The notes: generated from the sequence alone by a model not told the origin. A stretch of DNA of 46,124 nt from a virus (IMGVR_UViG_2547132255_000002), one strand, 5' to 3'. Shown: positions 20,579-21,103, counted from the first letter of the stretch. Numbers and translations: made by a program.

Positions 20579-21103
20579 CTATTGTCCTGCAACTTGTTTA
20601 GTGAGTCTTAGGATGATGCTGCCAAGAATAGCTATGAATTTTTCACGATTATTGGCATCTGGACGGTTAAGATTCAGCTCAATGTCTCCAACTTTTATGC
20701 CGAATCTTGCTGAGTTAATGAGATCTTCCTGACCACCTCGGCTAATAAATGTTCGTAATGATTCAATTTCTGCGTCAGTTATTTCCGGGTTGTCTATTTG
20801 ATGAGAGCGAACATTTCTTATTCTATTTAGGCGTTTAAGTTCTGCGACGGAGTGTTCATTTAGGCCGAGGTTGGCAGCTAGCTGAATTTTTGCGGCATAG
20901 GTCATGGTTAAGTTTTCACCAAATCCATCAAATAGATTTTGGTTACCTACAGCGGCGCAACAAAATGCCTCAATCATTGCTTCTGTAATCAGATGTACTC
21001 TTAAAACCAAACCAATATCATCTTCAGTATTTACTAACCTTTCAATTCGTTGCCAAGTTGCTTCGTTCATTATGAACTTTGATTCAAAAATTTCAGGATT
21101 CAT
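20579..21103 (-). CDS. HEPN-motif protein (candidate Abi-like RNase), antisense to the late operon
   Basis: 174-aa ORF; RNVRSH fits the HEPN Rx4-6H motif; alpha-helical composition; only 27 bp separate its start from the divergent terminase small-subunit start. Confidence 0.5.
   Translation of the reverse strand: MNPEIFESKFIMNEATWQRIERLVNTEDDIGLVLRVHLITEAMIEAFCCAAVGNQNLFDGFGENLTMTYAAKIQLAANLGLNEHSVAELKRLNRIRNVRSHQIDNPEITDAEIESLRTFISRGGQEDLINSARFGIKVGDIELNLNRPDANNREKFIAILGSIILRLTKQVAGQ

Follow-up and report, generated by a model that had tools for sequence, protein, structure and literature searches.

A solo HEPN-fold gene lying antisense to the late operon of a P22-like prophage and distantly related to the abortive-infection protein HepS

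Solo HEPN proteins encoded by prophages have been known as a kind of abortive-infection system since January 2026, when HepS (STM14_3211), from the Gifsy-1 prophage of Salmonella Typhimurium 14028, was dissected and became the first solo HEPN abortive-infection protein shown to sense and kill (Sargen et al., Nature 2026, PMC13043305; PDB 9OIJ/9OIK). HepS is a single-protein system that is expressed constitutively and is held as an inactive tetramer at rest. Its trigger, which it binds directly, is a stretch of 32 residues surrounding F924 in the siphovirus tail-tip protein J, and this segment builds a composite beta-sheet with N- and C-terminal segments of HepS (S13, D15, S202 and T203). The activated enzyme cuts the anticodon loops of tRNA-Thr, tRNA-Ile and tRNA-Ser; R100 and H105 are essential, their mutants losing activity, and the Gifsy prophages evade HepS via an isoleucine at the position of F924. 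As defined in that work, the HepS clade comprises proteins of about 35–50% identity to HepS, and the homologues obtained there by PSI-BLAST number 393 (PMC13043305). Another described case is Tha-1/Tha-2, a tail-activated HEPN defence of S. aureus prophages (Rostol et al. 2024, PMC11087260). Here we describe a stand-alone, HepS-like HEPN-fold gene of 174 codons, which lies on the minus strand at positions 20579–21103 of a 46,124-nucleotide stretch of viral DNA (IMGVR_UViG_2547132255_000002; the whole stretch is called the window below), a P22-like (CUS-3/Lederbergvirus-type) prophage of E. coli. It is most likely an uncharacterised anti-phage defence gene, distantly related to HepS and probably answering to a different trigger, and it extends the HepS-type catalytic scaffold to a second, highly diverged lineage. 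Distinct and uncharacterised, this lineage is invisible to Pfam, NCBIfam and PADLOC, is labelled 'hypothetical' everywhere (RefSeq WP_001067622.1 'hypothetical protein' for the product described here) and sits in a well-known cargo slot of lambdoid and P22-like phages, the classical phi80 included.

The single-chain AlphaFold2 (AF2) model of the protein has a predicted local distance difference test score (pLDDT) of 89.9 and a predicted template modelling score (pTM) of 0.86. It consists of one domain with the all-alpha HEPN fold, in which two helices are modelled with confidence in residues 1–24, and residues 135–144 are predicted to form a beta-hairpin. When this model was compared with the PDB using Foldseek, chains of HepS filled the top four ranks, and many HEPN domains ranked below them. 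The fold check proposed with the original prediction thus came out in its favour, although the families named there (Abi_2, Swt1, RnlA/LsoA and MAE_28990) are not the closest relatives. A search of the viral structures in BFVD returned nothing at E≤0.001. At the sequence level, a profile of the family searched against the PDB sequences found HepS first (E 2e-4). Alignment of the family by hhalign with the 210-residue HepS sequence, recovered from IMG/VR, gave a probability of 77–89% and E values of 2e-5 to 2e-6 over up to 153 columns, the best result being obtained with HepS plus a 54%-identical relative (probability 89%, E 2.3e-6, 153 columns). After one iteration of the hidden Markov model (HMM) via library representatives, HepS scored 68 bits and its 54%-identical relative 81 bits. 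Searches with a 55-residue HepS fragment, by tblastn and in a word-indexed protein set, gave no match.

The correspondence with HepS extends to single residues. The sequence RNVRSH of the protein stands opposite R100-N101-K-Y-A-H105 of HepS, so that R96, N97, H101 and the next isoleucine, I103, pair with HepS R100, N101, H105 and I107; all four are invariant in the close family of 14 sequences. Outside the R-N-x3-H motif, K72, L79 and G80 pair with HepS K76, L83 and G84, and the helix-1 glutamate region and the C-terminal 'PD..NR' helix align as well. The two proteins are also alike in build: both stand alone, are shorter than 250 residues, carry no additional domain, are encoded by prophages and have no conserved partner or inhibitor gene. 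Judged from these alignments, the catalytic core is common to the two proteins, but the trigger-sensing part of HepS is not.

The original prediction had pointed to RNVRSH (R96-N97-V98-R99-S100-H101, codons 20801–20818 on the minus strand), as fitting the Rx4-6H motif of HEPN RNases; in that superfamily the motif usually takes the form R-N/D-x3-H, and here it is the predicted catalytic R-x4-H. The motif alone is not evidence, because R.{4,6}H arises in 49% of 20,000 shuffles of the protein (RNxxxH in 2%); the assignment stands on its conservation across relatives and on purifying selection. The protein matches PHROG 5483, a family of unknown function, at 1.7e-50. Close relatives are few, 16 in a set of 5.8 billion proteins, and an exhaustive profile search recovered 367 representatives (clustered at 50% identity) at E≤1e-3, 75 of them at E≤1e-10. 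The pattern R96 N97 x R99 S100 H101 Q I D N is invariant in the close family. Among 141 representatives, most of which share 17–30% identity with the query, E41 is invariant and H37, R96, N97 and H101 are each at least 90% conserved; RNxxxH is present in 143 of 150 library representatives, and the median length of the relatives is 183 residues. The family is under strong purifying selection. Copies 72–76% identical in protein differ at a proportion of 0.15–0.20 of non-synonymous sites (pN) versus 0.77–0.86 of synonymous sites (pS), the latter being saturated, and the ratio of non-synonymous to synonymous rates (dN/dS) is about 0.2 against a copy that is 89% identical.

That 89%-identical copy (IMGVR_UViG_2648501357_000002, 5001–5525) is itself damaged: R96 has become a stop codon and H101 a tyrosine, within six codons. 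Two of its roughly 19 changes fall on the R96/H101 dyad, for which the chance is about 0.01; this double loss suggests, as circumstantial support, that the nuclease activity is costly. A protein of 95 residues from Enterobacteriaceae bacterium ATCC 29904 is probably the product of the same truncated gene.

The exact protein of the window occurs on 548 contigs, is annotated as 'hypothetical' on all of them, and is intact and identical in independent genomes. The gene is rare: of 5426 complete E. coli genomes, 2 carry it, and with strict family-specific patterns only a handful of Enterobacterales species representatives carry it. Distant members of the family give weak, sub-threshold matches, and only to HEPN families of Pfam (HEPN_RiboL-PSP, HEPN_Cthe2314, DUF4145, Abi_2 and similar). 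A search of the literature found nothing specific on the family or on phi80 gp63 (AFV29200.1).

The position of the gene is as distinctive as its product. The open reading frame (ORF) begins with ATG, with an AAGG Shine-Dalgarno sequence 7 nt upstream (21111–21114, minus strand), and it is antisense to the late operon, as had been predicted: from the holin, which begins at 17920, to position 31376 every other real gene lies on the plus strand, and from there up to an insertion sequence (IS) of the IS21 family at 31.7 kb no other minus-strand gene is credible. Its start is separated by 27 bp (21104–21130) from the start of the divergent terS, which encodes the small subunit of the terminase. 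This spacer holds the Shine-Dalgarno sequence and has no room for a promoter, so any promoter of the gene must lie inside terS, a deduction of the original prediction that we could reproduce. In phi80 (PHI80_63) and in Salmonella phage FSL SP-016 the homologue is likewise the lone opposite-strand gene, with the lysis cassette on one side and the cos/packaging end on the other. Other users of this slot are Citrobacter and Salmonella prophages whose terminase is of the lambda GpA type, Pantoea prophages that combine Terminase_2 with a Mu-F-type head, and prophages from metagenomes. Across 40 IMG/VR loci, 92% of the flanking ORF residues are on the opposite strand to the HEPN gene, and a divergent ORF lies directly upstream in 36 of the 40, at a gap of −7 to 92 bp. 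Just as the window shows no partner gene, no conserved neighbour or partner was found in the related loci, whose flanks vary with the phage type.

This slot is one in which phages keep cargo. In other P22-like phages it holds unrelated forward genes, and in lambda it holds bor, so the comparison with bor made in the original prediction is apt: bor shares the antisense position after Rz and before the packaging genes, the low G+C content (GC) and the rare, patchy spread. The likeness is one of place; Bor is an outer-membrane lipoprotein unrelated to the HEPN protein, and the promoter and terminator signature of a classical moron was not found around the HEPN gene in the window. Another antisense ORF of lambda, the 177-residue lambdap78, was considered as a remote homologue and rejected, being a DUF1398 protein (hhalign probability 0.2%). 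With its low GC, its rarity and a slot otherwise filled by different genes, the HEPN gene is accessory cargo.

Taking HepS as the guide, we think it probable, if well short of certain, that the gene encodes a lysogen-expressed, auto-inhibited solo HEPN ribonuclease, a distant homologue of HepS, which is activated by a phage protein and aborts infection, and which travels as cargo of a P22-like prophage. A lysogen would make the protein at a low level, from a promoter within the 5′ end of terS, and at rest the protein would be an auto-inhibited oligomer; since no antitoxin is present, it is expected to be non-toxic by default. A protein from a superinfecting or co-resident phage may then switch it on, whereupon composite R96/H101 sites would cut RNA, most likely the anticodon loops of tRNAs as in HepS, and the cleavage would halt translation and abort the infection. 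A lone HEPN abortive-infection effector, which had been put forward as plausible from the sequence, gains support in this way from the fold and from HepS as an exact precedent. On induction of its own prophage, the gene might, more speculatively, be silenced by antiterminated late transcription running head-on through it, for which the antisense, non-contiguous operon of Tha and Ith in S. aureus phages provides a precedent (PMC11087260).

Tha is the nearest parallel for that last step. It too is a prophage-encoded HEPN ribonuclease of abortive infection, and its antisense architecture shuts the defence off when the prophage is induced (PMC11087260). Unlike the single 174-residue domain described here, Tha has about 300 residues, with an N-terminal domain in front of a C-terminal HEPN domain, and it lies in the lysogeny module together with an overlapping antisense inhibitor gene, ith. 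No sequence relationship between Tha and the present protein was detected, and there is no conserved overlapping antisense ORF. Two candidates for an Ith-like gene, a plus-strand ORF of 93 codons (20904–21185) and an ORF of 135 codons antisense to terS (21100–21507), the stop of which overlaps the ATG of the HEPN gene, were rejected since neither is conserved in relatives. It is also possible, though we hold it doubtful, that PHROG 5483 and its wider relatives form a separate clade of solo-HEPN immunity proteins, with the present protein as its founding member, that would retain the catalytic core of HepS but have another sensor surface and another trigger. The strictly conserved antisense slot at the front of the packaging genes would itself serve as the off-switch, antiterminated late transcription running into and over the gene once the prophage is induced. 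Autoimmunity would in that case be avoided by transcriptional architecture, as opposed to a silent variant of the trigger (HepS) or an inhibitor protein (Tha/Ith).

Several observations weigh against the reading as a HepS-like abortive-infection ribonuclease. The identity to HepS is only 19–21%, which puts the protein outside the HepS clade. At 174 residues it is 36 shorter than HepS (210 residues) and stops opposite HepS residue 196 or thereabouts, without the tail that carries S202 and T203, and no recognisable counterparts of S13, D15 and Y20, which in HepS bind or relay the J trigger, are seen in the N-terminal region, where the alignment has near-zero confidence. The second-best structural matches are MtlR/YggD, which are non-catalytic. 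No model in Pfam, NCBIfam or PADLOC matches the query protein, the sole match being to DUF6548 at E 0.029, so that the PADLOC check suggested for the locus yielded nothing for this protein. The 180 nt upstream of the gene contain nothing that resembles a sigma-70 site at 8 or more of 12 positions, and downstream there is no intrinsic terminator, only a hairpin without a U-tract. Finally, the IS21 element in the late operon leaves it uncertain whether selection acts on the cargo of the window copy.

Because the C-terminal tail is absent and the N-terminal contacts are not matched, the activation mechanism of HepS is not simply transferable to this protein, and its trigger is probably not the J epitope. 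The phages that carry the family give an indirect hint in the same direction. No J-like tail-tip sequence is present in the podovirus-type prophage of the window. The J-type protein of phi80 (PHI80_21, 8631–12209 of its locus) has F at the position of lambda J F924 (E 1e-9), and phi80 carries a 30%-identical relative of the HEPN protein; the J-type protein of FSL SP-016 (13694–16414 of its locus) has F there too, on a weak alignment. The lack of J in one carrier and the F kept in phi80 would fit a different trigger or some other means of self-avoidance, and hint against sensing of J.

Other explanations for the gene have to be set against the same data. The enzyme could be an active HEPN ribonuclease that serves the phage, as an addiction toxin, in the superinfection exclusion of close relatives or as an RNA regulator of the choice between lysogeny and lysis. 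The catalytic motif and the HEPN fold are expected equally under such a role, the persistent placement beside packaging genes in many phage types agrees with it, and the costly activity suggested by the copy that has lost both catalytic residues is compatible with it; yet there is no conserved partner that resembles an antitoxin, the slot is of a generic variable or moron type and holds unrelated genes elsewhere (bor in lambda), the closest characterised homologue, HepS, is a defence protein, and the gene is too rare for a core phage function, so that we regard a phage-serving role as unlikely. Toxins of the HEPN-MNT type (HepT/MntA; SO_3166, PDB 5YEP; 7AE2) are, to our knowledge, always found beside an MNT nucleotidyltransferase antitoxin, and neither here nor at any of the 45 or so loci inspected does an MNT gene adjoin the HEPN gene. 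Improbable, and a little more so than a phage-serving role, is that the gene is real but, in the prophage of the window, silent or decaying, that is, unexpressed or no longer functional. In favour of it are the missing promoter- and terminator-like sites and the state of the prophages themselves: IS21 sits in the late operon, the same prophage in E. coli EC931 is heavily degraded, and one copy is a pseudogene. Against it, the promoters of lysogen-expressed cargo are often weak or depart from the consensus, and relatives with a 76-bp gap have in common a TATACT/TATAAT box about 60 nt upstream of the gene; the ORF is intact and identical across independent genomes and 548 contigs, and the family as a whole is under strong purifying selection.

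The remaining two explanations concern whether there is a nuclease, or a gene, at all. MtlR and YggD (PDB 3BRJ, 3C8G and 6KCR) are chromosomal regulators of the mannitol operon that have the HEPN fold and no known catalytic activity, and their rank among the structural matches raises the thought of a non-catalytic regulator or binder, in which R-x4-H would be no nuclease site. HepS nevertheless ranks ahead of them in every comparison, and in contrast to them the present family is phage-borne and has an essentially invariant R-N-x3-H. Its conservation of R96, N97 and H101 at 90% or more, with E41 invariant, at identities of 17–30% is typical of a catalytic site, and the alignment sets the motif, position by position, against the essential R100 and H105 of HepS; a non-catalytic role is therefore quite improbable, more so than silent cargo. 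A spurious ORF with a chance motif, for which one could point to its antisense position and to how often the motif arises by chance, can practically be set aside: it is refuted by the conservation and fold data, namely the match to PHROG 5483, the 367 representatives, a pN far below pS and a confident fold that matches a solved structure.

If the protein is indeed a distant HepS-like defence ribonuclease, its family offers a natural test case for the rewiring of one HEPN core to new triggers, given that the C-terminal tail of HepS is missing and the N-terminal contacts are not recognisably conserved. As phages with unrelated packaging modules keep the same antisense slot, the family further provides a simple, testable model of self-avoidance on induction. 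The practical gain is a candidate single-gene defence that can be annotated in prophages of Enterobacterales.

As for the surroundings of the gene, the slot has a GC of 0.38–0.44 (the HEPN gene 0.38–0.40) versus about 0.50 in the flanks. Its left part (19887–20578, plus strand) comprises an ORF of 68 codons (19976–20182, plus strand; WP_000969109.1, hypothetical) and a spacer of about 400 bp (20183–20578), neither of which has a match in Pfam or PADLOC. Within the spacer, between the convergent genes, lies the GC-rich hairpin mentioned above (CGGGAGAG/CTCTCCCG, 20438–20464). The window had no near match in the phage database past about 19886, where the 68-codon ORF and the spacer lie. The HEPN gene is not accompanied by the ORF, the spacer or the hairpin in a conserved way; the relatives have other neighbours. 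A scan of 19–22 kb with Rfam gave no relevant match, and the window contains no tRNA genes and hence no tRNA-based counter-measure.

The rest of the prophage is laid out as follows. The integrase gene (1419–2489, minus strand) lies near one end, and the lysis genes (17920–19137, plus strand) and a KilA-N gene (19340–19870) precede the slot. On its other side terS (21131–21658, plus strand; Terminase_2, Pfam 1e-39) is directly followed by terL (21655–23067), with the portal gene starting at 22998; then come the tail-needle gene (30043–30897), the tailspike gene (40738–43683) and the chromosomal ybhB (44409–44885). The IS21-family insertion (31676–33477, minus strand) is antisense within the late operon, between the tail-needle gene and the ejection-protein genes. 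It consists of IstA (32455–33477, minus strand; 340 residues, rve and helix-turn-helix (HTH)) and IstB (31676–32458, minus strand; 260 residues, Pfam 7.7e-112). This antisense two-gene cassette at 31.7–33.5 kb had been considered as a defence system and was rejected once it was seen to be the IS21 element, the PADLOC label 'DrmD' on IstB being a false lead. Because the element sits inside the late operon, the prophage is probably defective. The same prophage in E. coli EC931 (chromosome 4201848–4214372) has decayed further, with an IS5 insertion, truncated holin and excisionase genes and the early region deleted; despite this decay its HEPN gene and the flanks are still intact and 100% identical.

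Expression of the HEPN gene in the lysogen is suggested by its homology and its position, and the region where a promoter would have to lie has a peculiarity of its own. The first 80–90 nt or so of terS (window 21125–21212) are nearly invariant as DNA across diverged phages, including loci whose HEPN proteins have no more than about 40% identity to each other. A promoter of the HEPN gene was considered as the cause of this invariance and rejected, since phages that lack the HEPN gene have this block too, and P22 retains a relic of it; the block is more likely a feature of terS or of a recombination junction. In P22 (BK000583, 40739–40825; about 2246–2500 of the locus that we analysed) the relic is a degenerate, GTG-started terS flanked by orf25 and orf80, where phage BTP1 has its 'pid' annotation, which suggests that the pid region derives from a displaced 5′ end of terS.
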